This document shows, in pieces, positions 1 to 46,853 of a stretch of 64,000 nt of DNA. A program made the position numbers and the translations under genes. The stretch's first letter is position 1; each line of letters begins with the position of its first letter. Source of the stretch: Myxococcota bacterium (GTDB lineage: Bacteria; Myxococcota_A; UBA9160; UBA6930); assembly GCA_965223415.1 (NCBI GenBank), contig OZ245002.1:5632001-5696000 (forward strand), in the 5' to 3' direction. The notes under the pieces were generated by a model, which ran no database searches, had not been told where the DNA came from, and worked only from the letters and a program-made list of their open reading frames with translations.

Positions 1-93
1 CCGCGGCCGATCCGATCCGGCGACGGAGCGGGTGACCCGCTGACGGCGGGCCAGCTGCTGGGCGCGGCGGGGATTCCTGATCTTCCTCTTCAT
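1..93 (-). CDS. rplR: 50S ribosomal protein L18, N-terminal part (runs off window start)
   Basis: ATG at 93; reads MKRKIRNPRRAQQLARRQRVTRSVAGSDRPR; directly downstream of rplF as in the spc operon. Confidence 0.85.
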   Translation of the reverse strand, partial: MKRKIRNPRRAQQLARRQRVTRSVAGSDRPR

Positions 94-113
94 CTCTTCC
101 TGCCTTCGCGGAC

Positions 114-653
114 CTAGCCGACCGCGGCCTTGCCGACCTTGCGGCGGACGTGTTCGTCGACGTAGCGGACGCCCTTGCCCTTGTAGGGCTCCGGCGGACG
201 CAGGGCGCGGACCTCGGAGGCGAACTGGCCGACCAGCTCCTTGTCCGCGCCCTCGATCTTCACCTTCGTGTTCTCCTCGACGGCGACCGAGAGCCCCTCA
301 GGCACCGGCACGTCGACCGGATGCGAGAAGCCGAGCAGGAGCTTCAGGGTCTTGCCGGCGGCCTCGGCCCGGTAGCCGACGCCGACGATCTCGAGCTCTT
401 TCGTGAAGCCCTGGGTCACGCCTGTGACCATGTTCGCCAGGAGCGCCCGCGCCAGACCGTGGAGGGCTCGGGTCTTCTTGCTCTCGTCGGGTCGGGTGAG
501 GGTCACGCTGCCGTCGCCCACGTCCACCTGGATCTCGGCGGGGAGACGGTTCGAGAGGGTTCCCTTCGGCCCCTTGACCTCGACGACGTCGCCTTCCCGC
601 TTGACGGAGACGCCGCTCGCCAGCTCGATGGGCTGCTTGCCGATGCGCGACAT
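114..653 (-). CDS. rplF: 50S ribosomal protein L6
   Basis: MSRIGKQPI...RPPEPYKGKGVRY. Confidence 0.98.
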   Translation of the reverse strand: MSRIGKQPIELASGVSVKREGDVVEVKGPKGTLSNRLPAEIQVDVGDGSVTLTRPDESKKTRALHGLARALLANMVTGVTQGFTKELEIVGVGYRAEAAGKTLKLLLGFSHPVDVPVPEGLSVAVEENTKVKIEGADKELVGQFASEVRALRPPEPYKGKGVRYVDEHVRRKVGKAAVG

Positions 654-655
654 CT

Positions 656-1051
656 TCACCAGACCTCGCAGACGACTTCGCCACCGACGTTCTGCTCGCG
701 GGCGGAGTCGTCGGAGAGCACGCCCCGGGGCGTGGAGAGGACCGCGACGCCCAGGCCGTTGCGCACCTTCGGCACCTGCTTGGCGCCCACGTAGACGCGC
801 CGGCTGGGCTTGGAGACTCGGCGCAGGCCGTCGATGATCATCCGGCCGTCGTGGCCGTAGCGCAGGGTGAGGCGAAGCAGCGGCTTGCCCTCGTTGGCCT
901 CGACGCTGACGTCCTCGAGGAAGCCTTCGTCCCGCAGGACGCCGGCGATCGCCAGCTTGAGTTTGGAGGAGGGACAGGTCGTCTCCGCATGGCGGGCGAC
1001 GCCCGCGTTGCGAATGCGGGCCAGCATGTCGGCGACGGGATCGGTCATCAT
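656..1051 (-). CDS. rpsH: 30S ribosomal protein S8
   Basis: MMTDPVADMLARIRNA...RVSKPSRRVY...GGEVVCEVW; start trimmed from ORF 656..1315. Confidence 0.97.
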   Translation of the reverse strand: MMTDPVADMLARIRNAGVARHAETTCPSSKLKLAIAGVLRDEGFLEDVSVEANEGKPLLRLTLRYGHDGRMIIDGLRRVSKPSRRVYVGAKQVPKVRNGLGVAVLSTPRGVLSDDSAREQNVGGEVVCEVW

Positions 1052-1056
1052 GGTGC

Positions 1057-1605
1057 TTACCCCTGGTTCCGGAACGGCATGCCGAGGTGGGCGAGCAGCG
1101 CCTTGGCCTCGGCGTCGGTGCCCGCGGAGGTCACCACGGTCACGTTCATGCCGGTGATCTTCTCGACCTGGTCGTAGTCGACTTCCGGAAAGATGATCTG
1201 CTCCCGGATGCCGAGGGTGTAGTTGCCGCGCCCGTCGAAGGCCTTCGGCGACGTGCCGCGGAAATCGCGCACGCGGGGGAGCGCCACGTTCATGAGGCGG
1301 TCGAGGAACTCCCACATGCGCGCTCCGCGCAGGGTCACCATCGTGCCGATAGGCTGGCCCTGGCGCAGCTTGAAGTTCGCGACGGACTTCCGCGCCCGGC
1401 GGATGATCGCCTTCTGACCGGTGATCATCGCCAGCTCCTCCGCCGCCTTCTCCAGCAGCTTGGGATTCTGGGTGGCCTCGCCGAGGCCCACGTTCACCAC
1501 CACCTTCTCGACGGTGGGCACCTGGTGCGCGTTCCCGTAGTTGAACTCGGCGCGGAGCTTCCCGTGGATCTCGGAGCGATAGCGCTCGAGGAGACGCGGC
1601 GTCAT
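1057..1605 (-). CDS. rplE: 50S ribosomal protein L5
   Basis: MTPRLLERY...[13 protein letters not shown]...[22 protein letters not shown] overlaps the rplN stop (TGATG). Confidence 0.97.
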
Positions 1606-1973
1606 CACAGCACCTCCGGTGCGAGAGAGATGATCTTCATGAAACGCCGGGCCCGGAGCTCCCGGGCCACCGGCCCGAAGATGCGGGTCCCGACCGGCTC
1701 CTTGGCCTGGTCGAGGAGGACGGCCGCGTTGTCGTCGAACTTGATGTACGAGCCGTCCGGTCGCGAGATGCCCTTGCGGGTGCGAACGACGACGGCTCGC
1801 CGAACCTCGCCCTTCTTGACGCGGGCGTTCGGAATGGCGTCTTTTACGGCCACGACGATGATGTCCCCGATCGAGGCGTACTTGCGCCGGGTGCCCCCGA
1901 GCACGCGGATGCAGGCGACCTTCCGCGCGCCCGAGTTGTCGGCGACTTCCAGCGTCGATTCCGGCTGGATCAT
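1605..1973 (-). CDS. rplN: 50S ribosomal protein L14
   Basis: [16 protein letters not shown]...[12 protein letters not shown]. Confidence 0.98.
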
Positions 1974-2029
1974 GCCTTTTCTCCACGAGTCTGGAGTTCC
2001 GGCTGGATCATGGTTCCTTCTCCGCCCGC

Positions 2030-2293
2030 CTAGACCTGGGTCGACTTCTCGAGGGTCGACTGCACCTTCCAGCGCTTTCGCTTGGAGAGCGGCCGATGCT
2101 CGATGATCTGGACCCGATCGCCCACGGCGCAGCCATTTTCCTCGTCGTGGGCCATGAAACGGGCATGGCGCCGCACGTACTTCTGGTAGCGGGGATCCTT
2201 GACGAGGCGCTCGACGCGAACGACGACGGTCTTGTCCATCTTGTCGCTCACGACAACGCCTTCCAGGGTCCGTCGACTTCCACGCTCACTCAC
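2030..2293 (-). CDS. rpsQ: 30S ribosomal protein S17
   Basis: GTG start; [14 protein letters not shown]...RPLSKRKRW. Confidence 0.96.
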
Positions 2294-2488
2294 CGGTCTT
2301 CTCCACGCTCTTCTCACGGAGGATCGTCTCGACGCGGGCCACGTCGCGGCGGAGGGTCCGCAGCTTCGCCGTGTCCTCGAGCTGGCCCGTAGCCTTTCGC
2401 AGGCGGATGCTCACCAGCTCGGTCCGCAGCTCCTCGCCCTTCGCCAGGAGCTCCTCCGTCGACAGGTCTCTCAGCTCTCCCGCCGTCA

Positions 2489-2489
<1 letters not shown>
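2286..2489 (-). CDS. rpmC: 50S ribosomal protein L29
   Basis: [14 protein letters not shown]...[12 protein letters not shown]; lies between rplP and rpsQ. Confidence 0.95.
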
Positions 2490-2902
<413 letters not shown>

Positions 2903-2904
2903 GC

Positions 2905-3585
2905 CTACCTCACCCCGTCGTCGGTGATGCGCTGGGTGAGCGTGCCCTGCCGCAGCTCGGTGGGGGCCACGTCGCCCTTGAAGATCCAGACCTTCACGCC
3001 GATCACGCCGTAGGTCGTCTTGGCTTCGGCGGTCCCGAACTCGATGTCGGCGCGCAGCGTGTGGAGGGGGACGCGCCCTTCGGCATAGCGCTCTCGGCGC
3101 CCCATCTCCGCGCCGCCCAGCCGGCCGCCGCACTCGATGCGGATTCCCTTGGCCCCGAACTTCATCGTCGAAGTCATCGCCTTCTTCATCGCCCGTCGGA
3201 ACGCCACCCGGCGCTCGAGCTGGAGCGCGATGTTCTCGGCCACGAGCTGGGCGTCGAGCTCCGCCTTCCGGATCTCCTTGATGTTGATGAAGATCTCGTG
3301 GGGCGTGTGCTGCTTCAGCTCCGCCCGCAGCACCTCCACCTCGGCGCCGCGCTTCCCGATCAGGATGCCGGGACGGGCCGTGTGGATGTTGATCACGCAC
3401 TTCTCGCCGGTGCGGTCGATGACCACCTTGGAGATGCCCGCGTGGTAGAGCTTCTTCTTGATGTGCTTGCGGATGGCGTGGTCTTCGAGGACCTGGTCGG
3501 CGTAGCGACGCTCCTCGTACCAGTTGGACTTCCATCCGTAGAGGGTCCCCAGGCGGAATCCATAGGGGTGGACTTTTTGTCCCAC
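2905..3585 (-). CDS. rpsC: 30S ribosomal protein S3
   Basis: [13 protein letters not shown]...[12 protein letters not shown]...[10 protein letters not shown]. Confidence 0.98.
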
Positions 3586-3936
3586 CTAGCGCTCCTCCAG
3601 CTCGACGGCGATGTGACTGGTCTTGTGCTGGATCCACGCGGCGCGGCCCTGGGCCCGCGCGCGGATCCGCCACATCTTCGACCCTTCATCCACCGTGATC
3701 TTCGAGACGATCAGGTTGTCGATGTCGATGCCCGCCTTGTCGCGGGCGTTCTTCTCTTCGGCGTTTGCCACGGCAGAACGCACGAGCTTGGCAAGCGGGC
3801 GGGCGACACGCTTGGGCGACAGGTCGAGCAGGTTGAGCGCGTCTTCGACTTGCCGGCCCCGGATCACGTCCGCCACGAGCCGCGCCTTGCGCGCGCTCAC
3901 GCGGTAGTTGTTGAGCTTGGCGATCGAGGAGGCCAT
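3586..3936 (-). CDS. rplV: 50S ribosomal protein L22
   Basis: [16 protein letters not shown]...RARAQGRA...TSHI. Confidence 0.97.
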
Positions 3937-4211
3937 CAGCGCCTGACCTTCTTGTCCGTGGCATGGCCCGTGAACTTGCGCGTGGGCGCGAACTCGCCGA
4001 GGCGGTGGCCTACCATGTTCTCCGTCACGTAGACGGGCATGAAGAGCTTGCCGTTGTGGACGTGAAAGGTGAGCCCGACCATTTCGGGTGTGATCATCGA
4101 GCGCCGCGACCAGGTCTTGATGACCTGCTTCGAATCCGTCGCCACGGCGGCATCGACCTTCTTCTGAAGGCTCGTATCGACGAACGGGCCCTTCTTGAGT
4201 GAGCGCGCCAC
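3936..4211 (-). CDS. rpsS: 30S ribosomal protein S19
   Basis: GTG start; [11 protein letters not shown]...IKTWSRRS...[11 protein letters not shown]. Confidence 0.97.
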
Positions 4212-5041
4212 TACTTCTTCCCCCGCCGCTTGACGATGTACTTGTCGGAACGGTGGTTGCTGCGGGTCTTGTGACCCTTCGTGGGCTTGCCCCACGGCGT
4301 ACACGGATGGCGGCCGCCGGAGCTCTTGCCCTCGCCGCCGCCCATGGGATGATCCACCGGGTTCATGGCCACTCCCCGGACGTTGGGGCGCTTGCCCTTC
4401 CAGCGGGCGCGCCCGGCCTTGCCGATGCGCTGGTTCTCGTGCTCCAGGTTGCCCACCTGGCCCACGGTCGCCATGCACTTCACGTGGATCATGCGGTTCT
4501 CGCCGCTCGGCATGCGCAGGGTCACGTACTTGCCCTCGCGAGCCATCAGCTGGGCGCCTGTCCCGGCGGCCCGCACGAGCTGCGCGCCCTTGCCGGGCTT
4601 CATCTCGATGGCATGGAGGACCGTGCCCAGGGGAATCCTCTCGAGGGGCAGCGCGTTGCCGGGCCGGATCTCGGCCTCGGGACCGGACTGCACCGTATCC
4701 CCCACCCGCAGGCCGGCGGGCGCCAGGATGTAGCGCTTCTCGCCGTCGGCGTAGTGGAGGAGCGCGATCCGCGCCGAGCGGTTCGGGTCGTACTCGATCC
4801 CCGCCACCTTGGCCGGCACGCCTTCCTTGTTGCGCCGGAAGTCGATCGCCCGGTAGCGGCGCTTGTGGCCGCCGCCCCGGTGCCAGGAGGTCACGCGGCC
4901 GTAGCCATTGCGACCGCCGCTCTTCTTGACGAGACCCGTGACGAGCGACCGCTCGGGCTTCGCACGGGTCACTTCCGCGAAGTCCGAGACGCTCATCTTG
5001 CGTCGCCCCGGCGACGTCGGCTTGTAGATGCGAACCGGCAC
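4211..5041 (-). CDS. rplB: 50S ribosomal protein L2
   Basis: [13 protein letters not shown]...[17 protein letters not shown]. Confidence 0.98.
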
Positions 5042-5045
5042 GACT

Positions 5046-5333
5046 CTAGACTCCTTCGTAGAACTCGATGGTCTGGCCCTCGGCCAGCGTGACCATCGCC
5101 TTCTTCCACTCCGACTTGCGGCCGGTGAACTTCCCCACCCGGCGGCTCTTTCGGGGCATCCGGATCGTGCGCACGTCCAGGACGTCCACCTGCCAGATCG
5201 CCTCGACGGCCTGCTTGATCTGCGCCTTGTTCGCGTGGGGATTCACGGCCAGGGTCACCACGTTCGCGAGCTCGCGGGAGATGGTGCTCTTCTCCGTGAC
5301 CACCGGGCGCAGCACGATGTCCTGGACCTTCAT
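5046..5333 (-). CDS. rplW: 50S ribosomal protein L23
   Basis: PVVTEKS...[11 protein letters not shown]...WKKAMVTL. Confidence 0.96.
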
Positions 5334-5977
5334 GCCGAGGCCTCCGGGGCAGCGCCGAGGCGCGCATGGATCTTCTCGAGCGCGCCCTGCACGATCAGCA
5401 GCTTCTCGTGACGCAGCACGTCGTGGACGTTCAGGCCCTCGGCGCGGACCACGCCGACCCGCGGCAGGTTCCGGGCGGAACGCTCGAGCTGCGGCGCCGG
5501 CTCGGGAATCACGATCAGCACGCTCGCATCGCCCAGGCCCAGGGCGTTCAGACCCTCGACGACGCGGCGGGTCTTGAACTCGTCCAGCTCGAAGGCATCG
5601 GCCACGGCGACGGCGCCTTCCCGCTGGCGCAAGGAGAGCGCTCCGCGCAGGGCGGCGCGGCGGGTCTTCTTCGTGAGCTTGTGCTCGTAGCCTCGCGGCA
5701 CCGGCCCGAAGACCGAGCCGCCGCCCGCGAACTGGGGCGCCCGGGTCGTGCCTTGCCGGGCGCGTCCGGTGCCCTTCTGGCGGTAGGGCTTCGCACCGCC
5801 GCCGGAGACCGCGGAGCGGTTCTTCGTGGCATGGGTGCCCGCCCGGCGCCGGGAGAGCTGACGCCGCACCTCGGCGTGGAAGAGATGGGGCTTCACGGCA
5901 GCCTCGAACACCACCGGATCGAGATCGGCCGAGCCGGCCTTGCCCCCAGAGGTCGTCGTGACGTCTACGGTCGCCAT
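5330..5977 (-). CDS. rplD: 50S ribosomal protein L4
   Basis: [30 protein letters not shown]. Confidence 0.97.
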
Positions 5978-5979
5978 GG

Positions 5980-6294
5980 CTAGAGCTTGATCTCCACGTC
6001 CACGCCGGCGGCCAGCTCGAGCTTCATCAGGGCGTCCACGGTCTGCGGCGTGGGATCGAGGATGTCGATCAGCCGCTTGTGGGTGCGCATCTCGAACTGC
6101 TCCCGCGACTTCTTGTCGATGTGGGGGCCGCGCAGCACGGTGTACTTGTTGATGGCCGTCGGTAGCGGAATCGGTCCCGCCACCCGGGCGCCGGTCCGAA
6201 TGGCCGTATCGACGATCTCCCCGGCGCTCTGGTCGAGGAGCTTGTAGTCGTAGGCCTTCATCCGAATCCGGATCTTCGCTGAAACATCCGCCAT
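5980..6294 (-). CDS. rpsJ: 30S ribosomal protein S10
   Basis: [14 protein letters not shown]...GPIPLPT...[16 protein letters not shown]. Confidence 0.98.
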
Positions 6295-6298
6295 GTTG

Positions 6299-7489
<1,191 letters not shown>

Positions 7490-7555
7490 CCTGCTCTCCG
7501 TTGATGGGGCCGTGGGCCCGCCGGTCATTGCCGTTGCTGGCGGTCGGCCCGCCGG

Positions 7556-9634
7556 TCAGTAGATCTTCACGATCCCGCCGGCGACAGCCGGCGGAACTTC
7601 CGAATAGGTCGAGAACTGCATCGTGTAGTTCGCGCGCCCCTGGGTCATGGAACGCAGCGAGTTCACGTAGCCGAACATCTCGGCGAGGGGCACTTCGGCC
7701 CGGATCACCTGGGCGCCGCCCTGCAGATCGAGGCCGGTGATCTGGCCGCGGCGGCTGTTCAGGTCACCCTGCACCGGGCCGACGAACTCCTCCGGCGTCA
7801 CCACCTCGACGCTCATCATCGGCTCCAGGAGCACGGAGCCCGCGCTGCGCAGGGCCTCCCGCGTCGCGATCGAGCCGGCGATCTTGAAGGAACGCTCCGA
7901 GGAATCCACGTCGTGGGCCTGGCCGTCGAGCAACGTCACCTTCACGTCGACCACCGGGAAGCCCGCGAGCTCGCCGGCGGTGCAGGCCTCCTCGCAGCCC
8001 TGGCGCACCGGCCCGACGAACTCCTTCGGGACGGCGCCACCTTTCACCGCGTTCTCGAAGGTGAAGCGGCTTCCCGGCTCACCGGGCTCGAGGGCGAGCT
8101 TCACCACCGCGTAGTCCCCGGAGCCGCCGGTCTGCTTGATGTAGCGGCCCTCGGCCTTCGCGGTCCGGGTGACCGTCTCCTTGTAGGCGACCTGGGGCCG
8201 GCCGACGTTGGCGCTCACGCCGAACTCGCGCACCAGGCGATCGGTGATGATCTCCAGGTGCAGCTCGCCCATGCCGGAGACGAGGGTCTGGCCCGTCTCC
8301 TCGTCCGTCGTCACCTGGAAGGTCGGATCCTCGGCCGCCAACCGGTCGAGGGAGGTGGCCAGCTTCTCCATGTCGGCCTTGGTCTTGGCCTCGACGGCGA
8401 TCGAGATGACCGGCACCGGGAAGTCGATGGACTCGAGCAGGATCGGGTGCTGGGGGTGGCAGAGGGTCTGCCCGGTGGCGACGCCCTTCAGTCCGACCAC
8501 CGCAGCGATGTCGCCGGCGAAGATCTCCGGGATCTCTTCGCGCTTGTTCGCGTGCATCTGCAGCAGGCGCCCGATGCGCTCCTTCTTCCCGGTCACCGCG
8601 TTCAGCACCTGATCGCCGGTCTTGGCCCGCCCCGAGTAGACGCGGATGTAGGTCAGGTGGCCGACGTGCTTGTCCGTGGCGATCTTGAAGGCGAGGGCCG
8701 AGAAGGGCTCGCTGAGATCGGGCTTGCGGAGGACCTTCTCCTCCTTGCCCGGAACCGTTCCCTCCACCGGCGGTACGTCCAGGGGCGAGGGCAGCAGGTC
8801 GACCGCCGCATCGAGGAGGGGCTGCACGCCTTTGTTCCGGAAGGCGGAGCCGCACAGCACCGGGACGATCTGGAGCGACAGGGTCGCCTCGCGCAGCGCT
8901 TTCACGACGGACTCGACCGGGATCTCGGCGCCGTCCAGGTAGGCCGCCATCAGGTCCTCGTCGACGTCCGCCGCCGCCTCGATCGCCTTCTCGCGGTGCT
9001 CCGAGGCCGTGTCCTGGAGGTCCTCGGGGATCGGCTCCTCGTGGAAGGTCGCGCCGAGCTCGGTGCCGTCCCAGACGAGCGCCTTCTCACGGACCAGGTC
9101 GACGACACCGCGGAAGTTCTCGGCCTCGCCGATCGGCAGCTGGAGGGCGATGGGGTTGGCACCCAGACGCTCGCGGATCATCTCGAGCACGCGGGGAAAG
9201 TCCGCACCGACCCGGTCCATCTTGTTCACGAAGGCGATGCGCGGCACCCGGTAGCGGTCGGCCTGGCGCCAGACCGTCTCGGACTGGGGCTCGACGCCGC
9301 CCACGCCACAGAACACGGCGACCGCACCGTCGAGGACGCGGAGCGAGCGCTCCACCTCGACCGTGAAATCCACGTGGCCCGGTGTGTCGATGATGTTGAT
9401 GCGGTGGTCCTTCCAGAAGCAGGTCGTCGCGGCGGAGGTGATCGTGATGCCCCGCTCCTGCTCCTGCTCCATCCAGTCCATGGTGGCGGCGCCGTCGTGG
9501 ACCTCGCCGATCTTGTAGGTGACGCCCGTGTAGTAGAGGACGCGCTCGGTCGTGGTCGTCTTCCCGGCATCGATGTGCGCCATGATGCCGAGATTGCGCG
9601 TGCGCTCGAGAGATGTGGTCGGGGTCGGGGTCAT
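7556..9634 (-). CDS. fusA: Elongation factor G
   Basis: [32 protein letters not shown]; between rpsG and tuf. Confidence 0.97.
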
Positions 9635-9678
9635 GGTTCGACTCGCGCTGCTGCGCTCTACGCCGTCGCCTCCCTCGC

Positions 9679-10149
9679 CTACCAGCGGTAGTGCGAGAAG
9701 GCCTTGTTGGCATCCGCCATGCGGTGGGTGTCTTCGCGCTTCTTCACGGCCTCGCCCTGCTCGTTGGCCGCGTCGATCAGCTCGTTGGCGAGCTTGTCCT
9801 TCATGCTCTTGCCGCTGCGGGAACGCGCCGAGCTCACGAGCCAGCGCATCGCCAGGGAGGTGGCGCGCTCCGGGCGCACCTCGATCGGAACCTGGTAGGT
9901 CGCACCGCCGACGCGGCGAGACTTCACCTCGATCCGCGGCCGCACGTTGTCCAGGGCCCGCCGGAACATCGCCAGGGGGTCGTTGCGGGTCTTCTGCTCG
10001 ATTTCGTCGAAGGCGCCGTAGAGGATGCGCTCCGCGGTGCTCTTCTTGCCGTCGAGCATGATGATGTTCATGAAGCGGGTGACCATCCGGTCCGCGTACT
10101 TGGGGTCCGGAAGGACTTCGCGCTTGGGGACTTCTCGGCGTCGCGGCAT
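9679..10149 (-). CDS. rpsG: 30S ribosomal protein S7
   Basis: MPRRREV...[13 protein letters not shown]...[15 protein letters not shown]. Confidence 0.98.
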
Positions 10150-10204
10150 GCGTTCCTCGAGACGGCTCGCGGCGACCGGGAGGGCCCGATCGCCGCGGCG
10201 AAGA

Positions 10205-10576
10205 TTACTTGGGTCGCTTGGCTCCGTACTTGGAGCGGCTCTGGTTCCGGTCGGCGACCCCCGTCGAATCCAGGGTGCCGCGCACGATGTGGTAGCGGAC
10301 GCCCGGGAGATCCTTGACGCGGCCGCCCCGCACGAGCACCACCGAGTGCTCTTGAAGCGTGTGGCCGACGCCGGGGATGTAGGCGTTCACTTCCCGGCCG
10401 TTGGTCAGCCGCACCCGCGCGACCTTGCGAAGCGCCGAGTTGGGCTTCTTCGGCGTCGCCGTGAAGACGCGGATGCACACGCCGCGCCGCTGGGGACACG
10501 ACTGCAGGTCCGGAGCCTTCGAGAGCTTCGGCTTGCGGGCGCGGCCCTTGCGGATGAGCTGTTGGACGGTGGGCAT
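10205..10576 (-). CDS. rpsL: 30S ribosomal protein S12
   Basis: [12 protein letters not shown]...[11 protein letters not shown]...[12 protein letters not shown]. Confidence 0.98.
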
Positions 10577-10782
10577 GGAATCTCCGCGTGTCCGGGTAGG
10601 TCCCGGCTTGCGAGGGGTTCGGGTGTGGAGGACGCGGTGTGCGGAGGGGCGCGAAACGACAACGAGCCCTTGCGGCGACACCCTTCACCCGCGAGGAGAC
10701 CGGAGCCGGGGCTCGGGAGATTCTCCTCGCCGGCGAGGCGGCCGAAGGTGGCAACTACCCTCGCAGACCGAGAAACCGCAGC

Positions 10783-10810
10783 ATCTTAACGGGCTTGCGA
10801 TCCCTGTCAA
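10783..10810 (-). promoter_or_regulatory. Sigma70-type promoter for the str/S10/spc transcript
   Basis: Minus strand reads TTGACA-N16-TAAGAT in the rpoC-rpsL intergenic region. Confidence 0.7.
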
Positions 10811-10864
10811 CGTGCCCGAGAAGGGCCAGAAGGTGAGGAAGCGGGGCCAAAGGGACCCGCTGAA

Positions 10865-15031
<4,167 letters not shown>

Positions 15032-22598: not shown

Positions 22599-23789
<1,191 letters not shown>

Positions 23790-38636: not shown

Positions 38637-40769
38637 TCAGAGCTCCGGCGCTGGAGCCACGTTCACCGGGATGGCGCTCTGCCGCGCCATTCCGCTGATC
38701 GGATCGAAGTCGACCTCGTTGCTCACGAGCGCGTTGGTGCTGCTGCCGATCTCCCGGACGTCCTTGCCCCGGGCGCCCGGGTCGCCCCAGGCGTGGGCCA
38801 TCGAGACGACGCCGCTCGGGACGTCCTCCGCCGGCTCCGCCACCCCCAGGATCGCGCCGTGGGCGGAGCGGATCTCGACCAAGGCGCCGGCCCCGACTCC
38901 GAGCTCGTCCAGGTCCAGCGGGTTCATGTAGGCCGGGTTGGTGGTCCCCCGCGCCCGGATGGCTTCGAGCTGCCGGCCGGAGGAGTTGTAGACATGACCG
39001 AGACGCCGGCTGACCAGGCGATGGCTGAACCCGTCTCCGTCCACGCCGGCGAGGACCGTCTCGAGCTCGTCGAGCACGCCCTCCGGCGCCAGCGCGAAGC
39101 GGGCGTCCGCACCGGCGGCCGCAGGCGCCACGACCTCGGCGATGGGGTCGAACACGTGTCCGCCTTCCTGGGCGCGAACCTCCGCGAGCGGCACGCGCGA
39201 CCCGGCGGTCATCGCGTCGAGCACCGTGTCCTTGTCGAGGGGCCGGCCGAGGTCGAGGGCGCCTCCGGCGAGCTCGATGGGGGTCCCGCGCCGGCGTGCC
39301 AGCTCGGTGTAGAGCTCCCACTCCTCGATCGTGTCGTCCGGCGGGGTGGCGACCGCCGGCGTGTAGTGGGCGTAGGGCGTCTCGTACCAGGTGTCCGTGA
39401 GCCAGGTGATGTCCGGCCGCTCCAGGCACAGGCGCGGCGCCAGCACGTAGTCGGCCCGGCGCGCGGTGGCCGAGAGCCAGGCGTCCACGCACACGAGGAG
39501 CTCGAGCTCGTCCAGCGCGCGCAGGGTCTTCGCCTGGTCCGGGAAGGCCACGACCGGGTTGCCGCCGATGCACAGCAACGCGCGCACCTGCCCTTCGCCA
39601 GGCTCGAGGATCTCGTCGGCCAGGGCCGCGGTGGGCATCTCGCCGACGACCTGCCCGAGCCCGCGCACCCGCGAGCGGGGACCGTGGCCGAAGGCGGGGC
39701 GCGGTGCGACCACCTGGGCGCGGCGCGTGTAGGGCCCGGTGAGCACGCCCGGGTTGGACACGGGCTCGCCTTCCCGGTTCACCCGGCCGCACACGACGTT
39801 CAGGGCGATGACGAGGTGCTCGGTCAGGTTCGGGCGCGGCGACATGTCCGGGCCGGTGCCGGTGGTGGCGATGCCGCGGGGCCCGGCGGCGAACAGGCGT
39901 GCGGCCTCGGCGATGCGCTCCGCCGGAACGCCGGTGCGTGCGGAGGTCGTCTCCAGGTCGAAGGGGGCCACGGCCCGGCGAAGCTCCACGAGCCCGTCGA
40001 CGTGGGCGGCGCAGAAGTCGGCGTCGTTTCGCCCCTCGGCCAGGATGAGGCGGATCATGCCGGCCAGCAGGGCCGGGTCTTCGCCGGGCCGAACGGCCAG
40101 GTGCAGGTCCGAGCGCCGGGCCACCTCGCTCCGGCGCGGGTCGACGCAGATCACCCGCAGTCCCCGGCGCCGGGCGTCGCGCAGGCGCTTGGCCGGATTG
40201 AACGGGGAGAGACCGCCCCAGGGCGCGTACTTGGAGACGAGGGTGTTGCAGCCGATCACCATCACCACGCCGGCGGCGGCAGCGGCGCTCTCGAAGCCGT
40301 GCATGCCCGCGCTCCAGAAGCCCGTGCGCGAGAGCGCCACGAACTTGCCGGGCTGGTCGATGGTGATGCTCGAGTAGAACGAGGGCGAGCCGGCGCCCCG
40401 GTGCCACGCCTGGGCCACGGCTAGGGCGGCAGCGTTCTGGAAGGCGTGGGTGCCGCAGTAGGTGGCCACGGCGCGGGGGCCGTGGGCCTCGACGATGGCA
40501 TCGACCCGGTCGGCGATCTCCCCCAGGGCGGCCCCCGTGGCGACGGGCTCGAGCTCGCCGTCCACGCCACGCCGGAGCGAGCGCCGCACCCGCTCCGGGT
40601 GGGCGAGCAGGGCCGGCAGCTGCCGGCCCTTGATGCAGGTGTAGCCGCCGTAGACCGGATCGGCGGCGTCCCCGCGCACGGCCGTGACCCGGCCGTCGTC
40701 CACGTCCACCTCGAGGGCGCAGTAGGCGTGGCAGACGCGGCAGTAGGATGTTCGGGTCCGGGTCGACAT
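38637..40769 (-). CDS. Molybdopterin (Mo/W-bisPGD, DMSO reductase superfamily) oxidoreductase
   Basis: N-terminal CRVCHAYC...CIKG Fe-S motif, DPRRSE, GGNP, C-terminal AYMNP.D..GVVSMAHAWG; no Tat signal. Confidence 0.9.
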   Translation of the reverse strand: MSTRTRTSYCRVCHAYCALEVDVDDGRVTAVRGDAADPVYGGYTCIKGRQLPALLAHPERVRRSLRRGVDGELEPVATGAALGEIADRVDAIVEAHGPRAVATYCGTHAFQNAAALAVAQAWHRGAGSPSFYSSITIDQPGKFVALSRTGFWSAGMHGFESAAAAAGVVMVIGCNTLVSKYAPWGGLSPFNPAKRLRDARRRGLRVICVDPRRSEVARRSDLHLAVRPGEDPALLAGMIRLILAEGRNDADFCAAHVDGLVELRRAVAPFDLETTSARTGVPAERIAEAARLFAAGPRGIATTGTGPDMSPRPNLTEHLVIALNVVCGRVNREGEPVSNPGVLTGPYTRRAQVVAPRPAFGHGPRSRVRGLGQVVGEMPTAALADEILEPGEGQVRALLCIGGNPVVAFPDQAKTLRALDELELLVCVDAWLSATARRADYVLAPRLCLERPDITWLTDTWYETPYAHYTPAVATPPDDTIEEWELYTELARRRGTPIELAGGALDLGRPLDKDTVLDAMTAGSRVPLAEVRAQEGGHVFDPIAEVVAPAAAGADARFALAPEGVLDELETVLAGVDGDGFSHRLVSRRLGHVYNSSGRQLEAIRARGTTNPAYMNPLDLDELGVGAGALVEIRSAHGAILGVAEPAEDVPSGVVSMAHAWGDPGARGKDVREIGSSTNALVSNEVDFDPISGMARQSAIPVNVAPAPEL

Positions 40770-40790
40770 GGGGCCTCCGCGGGCTCCATG

Positions 40791-42647
40791 TTACTCCGGG
40801 CGCCGATAGCGCCAGACGTGCCGGGTGCGGTCGGCGGAGAAGCCCGGCAGGACGGCCACCTTCTCGAAGCGCTCCGGGTCCTCCACCATCTCCATCAGGT
40901 CCGGGTGGCGCTTCCAGCCCAGGCCGAGGCGCCCGATGTTCACGAACAGCTCGCCACCCTCCCGGCGGGTGCGGCGCATGTGCCGCCGCAGCTCCTTCTC
41001 GGTGCCGATCAGCTGGACCTGGGGGTCGTAGTAGAAGGGGCCGGACACCCAGGTGACGGTCGTGATGCGCTGGTTCTCCGCGGCCAGCGGGTCGCGGACG
41101 GGGCGCGTGGCCTCGACGGACTCGCGCAGCGGGTAGAAAGGACGGGTCCACTGGGTGTGGTGGACGGGCCAGGCCAGGGCGAAGGCAAGCCCCAGGAAGG
41201 CGGCGCCGGCCGCCGCCCCGACCCACGGCCGGCGCAGCGCCGCGCCCAGGCCGTCGAGCCCGAGGGCCACGAGGGCCGCCGCCGGCGGAAGGGCGAAGGT
41301 GAGGTACCAGACGTAGAGGTGGTCGCTGCGCAGGCAGGACTGGAGCCAGGTGAGCGGCGCGGCGAGCAGCAGCACGACCAGCAGGCCGGCCCGCAGGCCG
41401 CCGGCCCGGGCCAGGCGCATCGCCCCGAATGCGAGTGCGGCGGCGGCGAGCACCGCCACCGCGACGAAGAGCGCGGTCGGGGCGTCCCGGAGCTGGGGAT
41501 AGAAGAGGGCCGCGTCCGCCTGGGGCCTGCCCCAGCCGACGCCGGCCAGGAGGTGGGCCCCGACCGCCTTCAGGTAGCGCAGGCCCAGGTCCGAGATGCC
41601 CTGGGCCTTGGCCGCATACTCGCGGTACTGGAAGAAGTTCGGCGTCATCATCAGCACGAAGAAGAGCGCCCCGGCCAGGTCGACGAAGACGAGCCGCGTG
41701 AGCTGGGAGCGCAGCGCCGGGCCGCCCCGGTCCCGGATCCACAGGAAGCCCGCCGCCACGGCGTTCATGAGCAACACGTGATAGAGGGTGGCCGGATAGG
41801 TCCAGAGCAGCAGCAGCTGGGCCACCCCGAAGGCGATCCAGCGCCGCCAGCTCCCCCGATGGAGCGCGGCCACGGTGAGCACCAGCGTGACCGACACCAG
41901 GCACATGGCCAGGGAGTAGCCGCGCGCCTCGGACAGGTAGCGGATGTGCCAGGGGTGCAGGGCCAGGAGCCAGGCGGCGAGGGCGCCGGCCCCGGCGAAG
42001 CCCAGCCGCCACAGGAGCCAGGCGACGGCGGCGATCGAGCCGGCGCCGGCGAGCAGGGCGGGCAGCCGCAGGACCGGCTCCGAGACGAAGCGGAGCGGCG
42101 GATCCGCCAACGCGCCCCAGACCGTGAGCGAGGCCCGCGCGAGCAGGGTGTGGACGACGTGGTTGTTCGGCTTTCGGTAGTACCAGAAGCTGTCGCGCAG
42201 CTTGATGCCCTTGGCTTCGAGCTGGCCCTCGCCGTCGTCGAAGTAGCCGCCCCAGATGGCCCGCCGCACGTTGTACACCTCGTCGTCCCACAGGCTGTCG
42301 TCGAGACGCGGCAGGCCCGCGCCGACGCCGGCCAGGACCGCGAGGCCGACCCCCGCGACGATCCAGCGGGAGGGCCGCGCCGGCGGGGCCAGGTCCGGGC
42401 GCTCCGGGGGCTCCCGGCGGTCGAACCAGAAGCGGGTGGTCGCGAGGAGCAGCGCGGTCACCGCCGCGACCCCGGCCGCGACCCAGTAGCCGTAGGCGAC
42501 CCACAGGTCCACGGGACGCACCGGGCGGCCGTCGGCGTGGCGCTCCACCTCGCCCGGGACCCACGGGTGGTCGCCGAAGATCAGGTGCGCGACCAGCACG
42601 AGGAGGATCACGCCGAGAGCGATCTGCATCGGGCGGGCGGCCTGCAT
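40791..42647 (-). CDS. GT-C fold membrane glycosyltransferase (GT39/ArnT-like)
   Basis: SLWDDE loop motif, NNHVVHTL, LRLPALLAG, HIRYLSEARGYSL, many TM helices. Confidence 0.8.
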   Translation of the reverse strand: MQAARPMQIALGVILLVLVAHLIFGDHPWVPGEVERHADGRPVRPVDLWVAYGYWVAAGVAAVTALLLATTRFWFDRREPPERPDLAPPARPSRWIVAGVGLAVLAGVGAGLPRLDDSLWDDEVYNVRRAIWGGYFDDGEGQLEAKGIKLRDSFWYYRKPNNHVVHTLLARASLTVWGALADPPLRFVSEPVLRLPALLAGAGSIAAVAWLLWRLGFAGAGALAAWLLALHPWHIRYLSEARGYSLAMCLVSVTLVLTVAALHRGSWRRWIAFGVAQLLLLWTYPATLYHVLLMNAVAAGFLWIRDRGGPALRSQLTRLVFVDLAGALFFVLMMTPNFFQYREYAAKAQGISDLGLRYLKAVGAHLLAGVGWGRPQADAALFYPQLRDAPTALFVAVAVLAAAALAFGAMRLARAGGLRAGLLVVLLLAAPLTWLQSCLRSDHLYVWYLTFALPPAAALVALGLDGLGAALRRPWVGAAAGAAFLGLAFALAWPVHHTQWTRPFYPLRESVEATRPVRDPLAAENQRITTVTWVSGPFYYDPQVQLIGTEKELRRHMRRTRREGGELFVNIGRLGLGWKRHPDLMEMVEDPERFEKVAVLPGFSADRTRHVWRYRRPE

Positions 42648-42667
42648 GGCGGCGCAGAGTACTGGAG

Positions 42668-42777
42668 AAGCGGGTCCGGGGGCGCCCCTCTACTTCACGC
42701 GAGACAAGCGGGTCCGGGGCGCCCCTCTACTTCACGCGAGACAAGCGGGTCCGGGGCGCCCCTCTACTTCACGCGAG
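42668..42777. repeat. Tandem repeat, about 3 x 37 bp (AAGCGGGTCCGGGGCGCCCCTCTACTTCACGCGAGAC)
   Basis: Copies at 42668-42705 (one extra G), 42706-42742 and 42743-42777 (partial); no spacers; the last copy carries the CoA-transferase stop codon. Confidence 0.95.
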
Positions 42778-45186
42778 GATGCCTCGGGCGGCCCAGTCGG
42801 CGATCTGCTCGGGGGAGTGGCCCAGCAGGCCCTCGAGGACGGCCCGGTTGTCGGCGCCGGGGTGGCAGGCGCGCTCGGGCACGCGGGCCGGAGCGCGGGA
42901 GAGGCGCAGGCGGGAGCTCTCCACCCAGCTCGTCTGGTAGAGCGCGTGGGCCACCTCCTGGAAGTGTCCGCGTGCCTGGAGGTGGGGATCCTCGAAGAGC
43001 GAGGGGGTGTCGAGCACCTCGGCCGCGGGCACGTCCACGGCCTGGAGCCGCGCCTCGACCTGCGCCGCCTCGAGAGGCGCGACCCAGCTCGCCAGCGCCT
43101 CGGGTGCGGCGGCGTCGGTGCGACGCCTGCGCCACGCGGGGCGATCCAGTGCCGCGCACAGGCGCTCCCAGTCCGCGTCGTCGCGCACCGCGATCGCCAC
43201 CCAGCGGTCGTCTCCGGCACAGGCGAACACGTCGTGGGGGAAGCACACCCAGTCCGCGTTGCCCCGGGCCGGCACCGGTCCCGAACCTCCTGCCGTCGCC
43301 TCGAGGAGACTCGGCGCCAGGAAGTGGAGCGACGCCTCTGCCTGGGCCATGTCGATGTGCTGGCCCTCGCCGGTTCGCTCCCGGTGCTCGAGAGCCGCCA
43401 GGATCGCGATGGCGTTGTAGCGGGCGGAGATGAAATCGGTGTAGGCGCCGTAGGGCCCGGAAGGCGGCTGCCCCGGCCAGCACGCGAGCTGCTGGAAGCC
43501 GGTCACGCTGGCGGCCAGATTCCCGAAGCCGGTGAAGTCCCTCCACGGACCGGTCTGGCCCATCAGGCTGCTCGAGATCATGATCAGCCCCGGGTTGCGC
43601 TCGCGGAGCGCCTCCCAGCCGAGCCCGTAGCCGTCGATCACCCCGGGCGAGAAGGACTCGGTGACCACGTCGGCCCAGTCGGCCAGCTCGAGCGCGATCT
43701 CGCGTCCTTCCGGGTGCGCCAGGTCGAGGGTCACGGCCAGCTTGTTCACGTTGGCGGTGTGGAAGCCGCCGGCGCCGTCCGGGTGCGGATTGTTGAACTG
43801 GTATGGAGGAATGACCCGTAAGGTGTCGAGACGACTGGTGGATTCGACGCGAACCACCTGGGCGCCATAGTCCGCCAGCAGGCGCGTGGAGCCGGGGCCC
43901 GCCAGCACCCAGAAGAGGTCGAGGATCTTCACCCCGGCCAGGGGGCCGGCCTCCCCATCGCCACGGGGCGTGGCGGCGAGCCGGGCGGGAGGCGCCTCCG
44001 CCCGCACCTCCGCCCCGTGCTCGTCGAGCCGGGGCGCCGGGCGGCCGTTGCCCAGCGGGCTGGCGGGCAGGTGCGCGAAAGGGCCGGGGACCCGCAGGCG
44101 CCCGGCGCCGGGAACCTCGATCTCCGGTGCGGCGCCCCGCTCGGCGAGCTGATCGCTCCGGGCCAGCTCGTCGACCCCCAGGATCGGCGCCACCAGCAGC
44201 TTGCGCTTCACCGCCTCGGCCATCAGCCGGGCCTTGTCGTGCCGGCGGAAGAAGGCGTCGAGGATCGTCTCGACCCGGCGCCAGTCGGCCTCGGTCCGTT
44301 CGCCGCGGATCAGGTTCAGGGCGAACTGGCCCCACGCCTCCTCGTGGAGATCGACCGGGACCTCCTGCTCTTCGGCGACCCACGCCAGCAGCCGGGTCAT
44401 GAAGTGACCGGTCGACGGCAGGAACACCGGACCCAGCGTGACCCAGCCGTCCGCCGCCTCGTAGCGCGTGCGCAGCAGGACACCGCCCGCCACGGCGCCG
44501 CCGGAGATCCGCCGGGCTGGCACCTCGCCCAGGGGCGCGTCCAGGGAGCGGAACATGGTGGCCAGGGTGACGGACTGCTGGGCCGAGACGTCCACGTGCT
44601 GGCCGCGCCCCGTCCGCTTGCGCGCGAAGTGGGCGAGGAGCGCGCCGCAGGCCGCGTCCGCCCCCGCGTGGGCGTAGGCCTGGGGCGCCTGGACGCGCAG
44701 GGGGCGCGATTCCGACTCCCCGGAGAGATAGAGCGCGCCGCCGGTGGCCATCGCCGTGAGGTCCGTGCTGGCGTGGCCGGCCTTCGGTCCGGTCTGGCCG
44801 AAGGGCGAGATCGAGATGTACACCAGGCCCGGGTTCAGGGCTGCCAGGTCCTCGTACCCGAGCCCGAGCGCTGCCAGCCGGCCGGGGCGCTCGCTCTCGA
44901 TCCAGAAGTCCGCGCCGCGGGCGAGCTCCCGAAGCCGTTCGCGGTCCACCTCCGCTGCCAGGTCGAGTACCGCACTGCGCTTGCCGCGGGCGTAGGCCTG
45001 CCAGAAGAGGGAGCGCTCCGGCCCCGGCTCACCCCCCAGCCAGGGGCCCTGGGCCCGGGCGCGGGAGCCTTCGGGCGGCTCGATCTGCACCACGTCGGCG
45101 CCCAGGTCGGCCAGGATCTGACCGCACAGGAGACCCTTCTCATCGGTCAGGTCCAGAACGCGCCGGCCATCGAGCACGCCCGTCAT
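42769..45186 (-). CDS. Family III (CaiB/BaiF) CoA-transferase, two-domain fusion
   Basis: Two copies of the family N-terminus: LDGRRVLDLT...LADLGADVVQIEPPEG and PLAGVKILDL..VLAGP...LADYGAQVVRVES; 805 aa. Confidence 0.92.
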   Translation of the reverse strand: MTGVLDGRRVLDLTDEKGLLCGQILADLGADVVQIEPPEGSRARAQGPWLGGEPGPERSLFWQAYARGKRSAVLDLAAEVDRERLRELARGADFWIESERPGRLAALGLGYEDLAALNPGLVYISISPFGQTGPKAGHASTDLTAMATGGALYLSGESESRPLRVQAPQAYAHAGADAACGALLAHFARKRTGRGQHVDVSAQQSVTLATMFRSLDAPLGEVPARRISGGAVAGGVLLRTRYEAADGWVTLGPVFLPSTGHFMTRLLAWVAEEQEVPVDLHEEAWGQFALNLIRGERTEADWRRVETILDAFFRRHDKARLMAEAVKRKLLVAPILGVDELARSDQLAERGAAPEIEVPGAGRLRVPGPFAHLPASPLGNGRPAPRLDEHGAEVRAEAPPARLAATPRGDGEAGPLAGVKILDLFWVLAGPGSTRLLADYGAQVVRVESTSRLDTLRVIPPYQFNNPHPDGAGGFHTANVNKLAVTLDLAHPEGREIALELADWADVVTESFSPGVIDGYGLGWEALRERNPGLIMISSSLMGQTGPWRDFTGFGNLAASVTGFQQLACWPGQPPSGPYGAYTDFISARYNAIAILAALEHRERTGEGQHIDMAQAEASLHFLAPSLLEATAGGSGPVPARGNADWVCFPHDVFACAGDDRWVAIAVRDDADWERLCAALDRPAWRRRRTDAAAPEALASWVAPLEAAQVEARLQAVDVPAAEVLDTPSLFEDPHLQARGHFQEVAHALYQTSWVESSRLRLSRAPARVPERACHPGADNRAVLEGLLGHSPEQIADWAARGILA

Positions 45187-45187
45187 T

Positions 45188-45685
45188 CTACGCGGGCGCG
45201 GCCCCTTCGGGCGCCTTTCTGAGCTCGGCGGCGGCATCCAGCACCGCTCGAACGATCTTGTCGTAACCCGTGCAGCGGCAAAGGTTTCCGGCCAGCCAGA
45301 AGCGCACGTCGCGCTCGCTCGGATCCGGCTGGCGATCGAGCAGGGCCTTGGCCGCCACCACGATGCCCGGCGTGCAGACCCCGCACTGGAGGCCGGCGTG
45401 CTCGAGGAGCTTCTGCTGCACCGGGTGCAGGCGGCCCGCCTCGGCCACGCCTTCGACCGTCTCGACCGACCGACCCTCGACCTCGGCCGCCAGGGTGAGG
45501 CAGGAGCAGACCAGCCGGCCGTCGAGCAGCACCGAGCAGGCCCCGCAATCGCCGGTGCCGCAGCCCTCCTTGGTTCCGGTCAGCTGGAGCTCGTCCCGCA
45601 GCACGTCGAGGAGCGTCTGGTGGGGCTCGCAGAGGAAGTCGGCGGGATCGCCGTTCACGACGGTCGTCACGTGGAGGCGAGGCAA
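45188..45685 (-). CDS. Xanthine/CO dehydrogenase family 2x[2Fe-2S] small subunit (CoxS-like)
   Basis: GTKEGCGTGDCGAC...SC, QCGVCTPG, GNLCRCTGY. Confidence 0.96.
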   Translation of the reverse strand: MPRLHVTTVVNGDPADFLCEPHQTLLDVLRDELQLTGTKEGCGTGDCGACSVLLDGRLVCSCLTLAAEVEGRSVETVEGVAEAGRLHPVQQKLLEHAGLQCGVCTPGIVVAAKALLDRQPDPSERDVRFWLAGNLCRCTGYDKIVRAVLDAAAELRKAPEGAAPA

Positions 45686-45716
45686 GAAGGCTCTCCTGTA
45701 GGCAGGGGCAGAGAGG

Positions 45717-46601
45717 TCACGAGGGCTCTCCAGCCGCGCGAGAGGCGGCGATCCGGGCGGCGCGCGTCAGGAGCACGCCGGCCACGTGGGTGCGGTAGTC
45801 GGCGGGCCCGCGCACGTCGTCGATCGGGCGGCAGGCGGCGCGGGCGGCCGCGGCGGCGGCCTCCAGGGCGGCGTCGTCCAGACGGCTACCGACCAGTGCC
45901 TCGGCCGCGGCCGGGACGAGGAGCGCGGTCGGCGCCACGGCGCCGAGGGCGACCCGCGCGGCGGCGCAGCGCCCTTCCCCGTCGAGTCCGATCTGCACCC
46001 CCGCCCCGGCGACGGCGATGTCCATCTCGGTGCGCGGGATGAGCCGCAGGTAGGCGTCGGCGGTGCGGTCCGGCGGGCGCGGCACGCGGAGCTCGACGAG
46101 CAGCTCGCCCGGGCCGAGCACGGTCTCGCCGGGCCCAGTGCAGAACGCCTCCACCGGCACCTCCCGGGTGCCGCCGGGAGCGGCGATCCGACCGACGGCC
46201 CCCGCGGCGATCAGGGCCGGCACCGTATCCGCTGCCGGGGAGCCGTTGCACAGGTTCCCGCCCAGACTCGCGCGGCCCTGGATCTGCTCGGAGCCGATCA
46301 GCTCGGCGGCTCCGACCAGGCCCGGCCAGATCGCGCGGATCTCCGGGCGCTCGCGCAGCTCCGCGCTGGGGAGGGCCGCGCCGAGCCGCAGGCCCTCCGG
46401 CCCGAGCTCGCAGGCCGTGAGATCCGGAATCCGCTTCACGTCCACGACCAGCCGCGGCCGCCGACGGCCCGTCTGCATCTGGACGATCAGGTCGGTCCCT
46501 CCGGCCAACACCCGGCCGTCCGGCCCGGCCTCCGCCAGCAGGGCCACGGCCGCATCGACGCTCTCCGGGGCGGCGTAGGCCGCGCTCGTGCTCAAGGCCA
46601 T
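45717..46601 (-). CDS. Xanthine/CO dehydrogenase family FAD-binding medium subunit (CoxM-like)
   Basis: LAGGTDL, IQGRASLGGNLCNGSPAADT, PIDDVRGPADYR. Confidence 0.94.
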   Translation of the reverse strand: MALSTSAAYAAPESVDAAVALLAEAGPDGRVLAGGTDLIVQMQTGRRRPRLVVDVKRIPDLTACELGPEGLRLGAALPSAELRERPEIRAIWPGLVGAAELIGSEQIQGRASLGGNLCNGSPAADTVPALIAAGAVGRIAAPGGTREVPVEAFCTGPGETVLGPGELLVELRVPRPPDRTADAYLRLIPRTEMDIAVAGAGVQIGLDGEGRCAAARVALGAVAPTALLVPAAAEALVGSRLDDAALEAAAAAARAACRPIDDVRGPADYRTHVAGVLLTRAARIAASRAAGEPS

Positions 46602-46604
46602 CTC

Positions 46605-46853
46605 CTAGCCTCCCGAGACCACCGGGAGGAAGTGGAGCTCGCTGCCGGCGGGCACCGGCTCGAGCCAGGGATCGTGGACGACCTCGCCGTCGATCGCGAC
46701 GGCGAACTCGGCTCCCAGCGCCGTACCGAAGCCCGGGAAGCGCTCGTCGAGCGCCCGCACGACGGCCCGCACGCTGCCCGCGGGCACCTGGACGTGCAGC
46801 AGCCCGTCGCAGTGCCCGCGCAGAGCACGGGGAATCTCCACGAGGCAGTTCAC
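46605..46853 (-). CDS. MoaD/ThiS ubiquitin-like sulfur carrier (82 aa)
   Basis: VEIPRALR...GSVRAVVRALDERFPG...VAIDGE...ELHFLPVVSGG with C-terminal GG; GTG overlaps the large-subunit stop. Confidence 0.85.
   Translation of the reverse strand: MNCLVEIPRALRGHCDGLLHVQVPAGSVRAVVRALDERFPGFGTALGAEFAVAIDGEVVHDPWLEPVPAGSELHFLPVVSGG

Follow-up and report, generated by a model that had tools for sequence, protein, structure and literature searches.

The window, i.e. the whole 64-kb stretch of DNA that was analysed, carries on its minus strand a long series of translation genes that includes the S10 ribosomal protein cluster and genes of the adjoining spc part (Table 1). At the junction of rpsJ and rplD the stop codon TAG of rpsJ (5982-5980) is followed by the two nucleotides CC (5979-5978) and then directly by the ATG of rplD (5977-5975). 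The spacer between the two genes is 2 nt long and rplC, the gene of L3, is absent there. This arrangement had been pointed out in a sequence-only reading of the same DNA and is borne out by the sequence itself as well as by the full-length Pfam matches of S10 and L4. From rpsS to rpsQ (2030-4211) the gene order is canonical, as judged from Pfam matches and start codons. Upstream, the minus strand carries in this order four tRNAs, tuf, tRNA-Trp, secE, nusG, rplK, rplA, rplJ, rplL, rpoB and rpoC. A block of oxidoreductase genes (38637-49111, minus strand) adjoins the translation genes and is unrelated to the rplC gap. According to Pfam it encodes a molybdopterin oxidoreductase, an 822-aa family III CoA-transferase fusion and a three-subunit enzyme of the xanthine-dehydrogenase/CO-dehydrogenase type with 2Fe-2S, FAD and Mo-binding subunits.

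Table 1. Genes and junctions of the str, S10 and spc parts in the window, in the direction of transcription.
Feature	Position	Strand	Basis or remark
rpsL	10205-10576	-	upstream of tuf and rpsJ
rpsG	9679-10149	-	upstream of tuf and rpsJ
fusA	7556-9634	-	upstream of tuf and rpsJ
tuf copy A (EF-Tu), 396 aa from ATG at 7489	6299-7489	-	Pfam; start codon checked
rpsJ (S10), 104 aa	5980-6294	-	Pfam PF00338 Ribosomal_S10, 1.4e-37, profile 1-98 of 98
rpsJ-rplD junction	5975-5982	-	TAG + 2 nt + ATG; identical type in 14 related loci
rplD (L4), 215 aa	5330-5977	-	Pfam PF00573 Ribosomal_L4, 2.3e-61, profile 2-189 of 190
rplW (L23)	5046-5333	-	Pfam PF00276, 3e-31
rplB (L2)	4211-5041	-	Pfam PF03947 + PF00181
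rpsS	3936-4211	-	Pfam
rplV	3586-3936	-	Pfam
rpsC	2905-3585	-	Pfam
rplP	2489-2902	-	Pfam
rpmC	2286-2489	-	Pfam
rpsQ	2030-2317	-	Pfam
rplN	1605-1973	-	Pfam + sequence
rplN-rplE junction, rplX absent	1603-1607	-	rplN stop TGA overlaps rplE ATG by 1 nt
rplE	1057-1605	-	Pfam + sequence
rplE-rpsH junction, rpsN absent	1049-1059	-	stop TAA, 5 nt, ATG
rpsH	656-1051	-	Pfam + sequence
rplF	114-659	-	Pfam + sequence

We searched the window for L3 in three ways. With E. coli L3 as query, tblastn gave no match in the 64 kb at E ≤ 10; the same query found L3 in 50 related loci. From 48 of these L3 sequences together with E. coli L3 an HMM was made, and its filter-free search (hmmsearch --max) of the six-frame stop-to-stop segments of at least 25 aa in the window returned zero matches at E ≤ 10. 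Ribosomal_L3 was also not among the Pfam matches of the 61 ORFs covering the window. The searches are in agreement with the earlier claim that no L3-like ORF occurs in the 64 kb. Given the 2-nt spacer, a hidden or broken gene has no room between rpsJ and rplD.

The spc part lacks two further genes, rplX (L24) and rpsN (S14), at the junctions given in Table 1. Neither protein was found anywhere in the 64-kb window, using the E. coli proteins as tblastn queries as well as HMMs made from 53 L24 and 48 S14 sequences of the related loci. The only trace in this search was the KOW domain of NusG with E = 1.2.

Between the stop codon of tuf and the start of rpsJ there are only 4 nt (6295-6298), such that the str genes run straight into the S10 cluster, which has no leader or promoter of its own. 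A scan of the window at Rfam gathering scores gave six tRNAs only and no ribosomal-leader RNA family. In pattern scans, which provide weak evidence, no terminator-like site was seen on the minus strand within 1-11000, and the sole promoter-like site of this region was located before rpsL (10810-10783, minus strand). The two tuf copies of the window (6299-7489 and 22599-23789, both on the minus strand) are identical over 1191 of 1191 nt, with the identity ending exactly at the limits of the coding sequence. As far as sequence can tell, such a pattern fits gene conversion. The contigs of at least six relatives start within the 3' end of tuf; short-read assemblies are probably interrupted by this repeat, directly before rpsJ. 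In seven of the outer L3-less loci described below (L023, L026, L029, L032, L043, L047 and L061) rpsJ comes after fusA and a tuf gene is missing between the two, unlike the order in the window and in Myxococcus xanthus.

Related loci were collected by scanning one genome per species with the L4 of the window, which provided 80 loci. For each of them the DNA around the cluster was inspected, up to 10 kb on either side. L3 lay directly upstream of L4 in 50 of the 80 loci, while the other 30 had no L3 in the flanking DNA examined. The sequence-only reading put forward as a rule that L3 is almost always located between rpsJ and rplD; this is true of the former part of the sample and fails for the latter. 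S10 abutted L4 in 29 of the 30 L3-less loci; the thirtieth (L006) is uninformative, as its sequence begins 30 nt before L4. The spacer between S10 and L4 was 2 nt in 14 of the 29 loci and 8-104 nt in another 14, and one locus (L019) had a 1-nt overlap. None of these spacers could house a gene of about 630 nt. Two of the L3-less loci belong to complete chromosomes, L007 (OZ252299.1) and L019 (OZ245015.1), and the set further includes bins from many separate projects.

To place the window among its relatives, a maximum likelihood tree (quick search, LG+G4) was calculated from S10, L4, L23, L2, L22 and S3 with 81 rows and 1003 columns; M. xanthus was not included. The window is found in a clade of 22 rows with an SH-aLRT support of 100, in which all rows are L3-less (L006 being uninformative). 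Its closest row is L018 with 90% identity over 1000 columns, and the loci nearest to it are titled Myxococcota bacterium or Deltaproteobacteria bacterium. Judged from these protein sequences, the organism of the window is a member of Myxococcota. The remaining L3-less rows form the groups L035/L023/L047/L061 and L026/L029/L032/L043 plus the single row L028. They adjoin the 22-row clade. With weak support they are intermingled with rows that carry L3, and the L3 proteins of those rows match entries named Thermodesulfobacteriota or Syntrophaceae. Mapping the presence and absence of L3 onto the tree gives three state changes, two of which are forced by well-supported branches. A single clade of all 31 L3-less rows, i.e. 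one origin for all of them, was marginally rejected (p-AU 0.026). A single clade of 30 rows with L028 left out was not rejected (p-AU 0.417).

Row L028 (CAYOYU010000003.1, 56-979) shows an L3-less S10-L4 junction with a 9-nt spacer and has kept L24 and S14. It has a long branch and an odd composition, and the tree puts it among L3-bearing rows. It may be that rplC left the cluster independently here, or that the row is a Myxococcota-like lineage in a wrong position of the tree.

The labels of several loci (L004, L016, L017, L026, L029, L032 and L043, labelled as Spirochaetaceae, Geobacter or Rickettsiales) conflict with the ribosomal-protein tree, in which these loci group with Myxococcota-labelled rows. 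For the group labelled Rickettsiales the nearest named relative of L4 (that of L032) is a protein of a Myxococcota bacterium with 65% identity, such that the Rickettsiales bin labels are probably wrong. From the tree and this one named homologue, the outer L3-less groups would belong to Myxococcota as well.

The distribution of L24 and S14 follows the tree more narrowly. All informative L3-bearing loci possess both proteins (L24 in 43 of 43, S14 in 41 of 41). L24 is absent in 19 of the 29 informative L3-less rows, and these correspond precisely to the window plus 18 loci of the inner clade. The absence holds for 18 of 18 informative inner-clade loci, while the outer L3-less groups keep L24. 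Of the 28 informative L3-less rows, 21 have no S14, namely those of the inner clade except L017, which retains S14 although it belongs to the same clade as the window, and in addition L023, L025, L047 and L061. Public protein data contain about 71 clusters related to the L24 of the sister locus L025, with identities of 59-99%. Four of these clusters are named, three as Myxococcota bacterium and one as Proteobacteria bacterium.

M. xanthus, a member of the class Myxococcia within the phylum Myxococcota, has the same gap in its S10 cluster. According to the accessible portion of the published data for strain DK1622, the genes of S10 (MXAN_3299, 3854626-3854934) and L4 (MXAN_3300, 3854988-3855611) are consecutive (PMC6791715). 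The L3 gene, MXAN_3370 (MXAN_RS16315, 3913660-3914304), shares the strand of rplD and lies 58 kb further downstream, between genes that are annotated as hypothetical proteins and are separated from it by spacers of 177 nt and 324 nt (PMC6791715). The same source assigns S10, L4 and L3 all to developmental expression group 6 (PMC6791715). Over 0-96 h the RPKM values given there are about 1043, 690, 2260, 2682, 1766, 1565 and 1456 for L3 and 1455, 522, 2213, 2779, 1893, 1921 and 1803 for L4, such that L3 closely tracks L4 (PMC6791715). Mxan_3370 is located just upstream of the sporulation locus nfsA and its transcription pattern differs from that of nfsA, as stated in the available part of a further report (PMC2875238). 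The rplC gap is thus an order that is typical for the phylum and normal for the lineage, and it has been visible for years in the public annotation of M. xanthus DK1622. In the open-access literature searched we found no explicit description of rplC outside the S10 cluster in myxobacteria.

To our knowledge L3 is universal and essential. From this universality and by analogy with M. xanthus, the genome of the window would carry rplC at a distant locus. We consider it very probable that the window displays an inherited order of the Myxococcota lineage, in which rplC left the S10 cluster long ago and is nowadays a separate chromosomal gene elsewhere. That the gap is common to the cultured M. xanthus and to the uncultured clade of the window points to an old event, and the exit of rplC probably took place in or near the ancestor of the phylum. 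The sequence-only reading had left the choice between a relocated rplC and a wrong assembly. Relocation is favoured, by analogy with M. xanthus only, and the assembly error is dismissed by the same order in 29 relatives and in M. xanthus.

An artefact of assembly or binning would mean that rplC was skipped or deleted by a misjoin at the rpsJ-rplD junction. The region is indeed hard to assemble, given the 100% identity of the tuf copies and the frequent contig breaks near tuf in relatives. However, a stop codon, 2 nt and an ATG make up the junction in 14 independent assemblies, S10 and L4 abut in 29 including the two complete chromosomes, and the finished genome of M. xanthus shows the same order (PMC6791715). 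This recurrence argues against an assembly error; moreover, a misjoin would not be expected to yield two intact and tightly spaced reading frames. We therefore give the artefact practically no weight. It is equally hard to conceive that the window does contain an L3 obscured by extreme divergence, recoding or a split gene, since the six-frame search without filters found nothing at E ≤ 10, the spacer measures 2 nt, and both S10 and L4 have a normal length and match their Pfam profiles over the full length. A loss of uL3 from the genome, with a ribosome that functions without it, could draw on the negative result only, i.e. on the absence of L3 from the 64 kb and from the DNA around the cluster (at most 10 kb per side) in 30 relatives. 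The general universality and essentiality of L3 stand against such a loss, as does cultured M. xanthus, which has the same operon gap and expresses L3 from elsewhere (PMC6791715); its probability appears negligible.

In a xenologous displacement, a horizontally acquired L3 at a different locus would have replaced the native copy, which was then deleted from the operon. The M. xanthus L3 resides among hypothetical proteins without ribosomal neighbours, a position equally compatible with an insertion and with a translocation. Its expression is close to that of L4, as expected of a long-integrated gene either way. We also searched a set of 5.8 billion proteins with a profile of seven L3 sequences from the nearest L3-bearing loci. 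No Myxococcota L3 was among the best 120 of 7998 scored matches; the matches listed closely resembled the queries, and those with a name belonged to Thermodesulfobacteriota, Syntrophaceae or Deltaproteobacteria. The ESM Atlas, queried with the same L3, returned generic uL3 clusters only, which were commonest in Bacillota. We regard displacement as unlikely.

Under the preferred reading of an old, inherited relocation, the excision of rplC would have brought rpsJ and rplD directly together. The exit itself may have occurred by translocation of the native copy, or an acquired copy may have taken over before the native one was deleted. A GGAG is found about 12 nt upstream of the rplD start inside the 3' end of rpsJ. 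Because of this motif and the 2-nt spacer, L4 would most likely be made by translational coupling to the termination of S10. The pattern scans suggest that the genes from rpsL to rplF may be read as one long transcript. The stoichiometry of L3 would then be kept by a co-regulated promoter of the stand-alone rplC rather than by co-transcription.

The absence of rplX and rpsN is a less ordinary observation than the rplC gap. The genes seem to have left the cluster stepwise: rplC first, a step common to M. xanthus, rpsN next and rplX last. That rplX and rpsN were relocated rather than lost in the clade of the window is by far the likeliest explanation. uL24 was found neither in the 64-kb window nor, for 18 relatives, in the up to 10 kb inspected on either side of the cluster. 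A stepwise dismantling of the most conserved cluster of prokaryotes, which in the clade of the window went as far as a complete absence of uL24 from the genomes, appears very improbable. If true, it would mean that a free-living bacterium assembles its large subunit without uL24. In any case, with rplX and rpsN having left the cluster as well, this clade offers a natural series for asking why the cluster is otherwise so stable.

The rplC gap is a real biological feature and reproducible. Rather than an assembly fault or a unique event, it represents a further member of a known arrangement, such that annotators should not read it as an error in Myxococcota. As L3 of Myxococcota lies off the syntenic stretch of ribosomal genes on the contig, ribosomal-protein trees built from single contigs and completeness checks based on the operon will miss it. 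The tracking of L4 by L3 from a distance of 58 kb in M. xanthus furthermore illustrates that an essential and stoichiometric ribosomal protein can stay balanced without co-transcription.

Compared with the canonical S10 operon of E. coli, as described in the available part of the source, the window has 10 of the 11 genes, all on one strand and in unchanged order (PMC3616713). rpsJ is the first gene in both cases, and the window differs in having no rplC between rpsJ and rplD. The E. coli operon possesses an L4-responsive leader upstream of rpsJ, whereas in the window rpsJ starts 4 nt after tuf and has none. S10 leader RNAs are mostly confined to Gammaproteobacteria, as far as this part of the source goes (PMC3616713). 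With the canonical spc operon the window shares rplN, rplE, rpsH and rplF in this order. It differs by the absence of rplX between rplN and rplE and of rpsN between rplE and rpsH, where the junctions measure -1 and 5 nt. For S14 a turnover of paralogues is known, with zinc-binding and zinc-free copies of which one is often found outside the cluster. By analogy, such a turnover would explain an spc cluster without rpsN through a copy elsewhere; in difference to it, the window shows neither S14 type.

The closest counterpart is the cluster of M. xanthus, for which we again refer to the accessible portion of the source. Its spacers are wider than those of the window, with 53 nt vs 2 nt between S10 and L4 and 201 nt vs 4 nt between tuf and S10, and L24 as well as a type-Z S14 are located inside the cluster, both of which the window lacks there (PMC6791715). 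In both cases S12, S7, EF-G and EF-Tu precede S10, which is followed directly by L4 with L3 outside of the cluster, and the order then continues with L23, L2, S19, L22, S3, L16, L29, S17 and L14 onward (PMC6791715).
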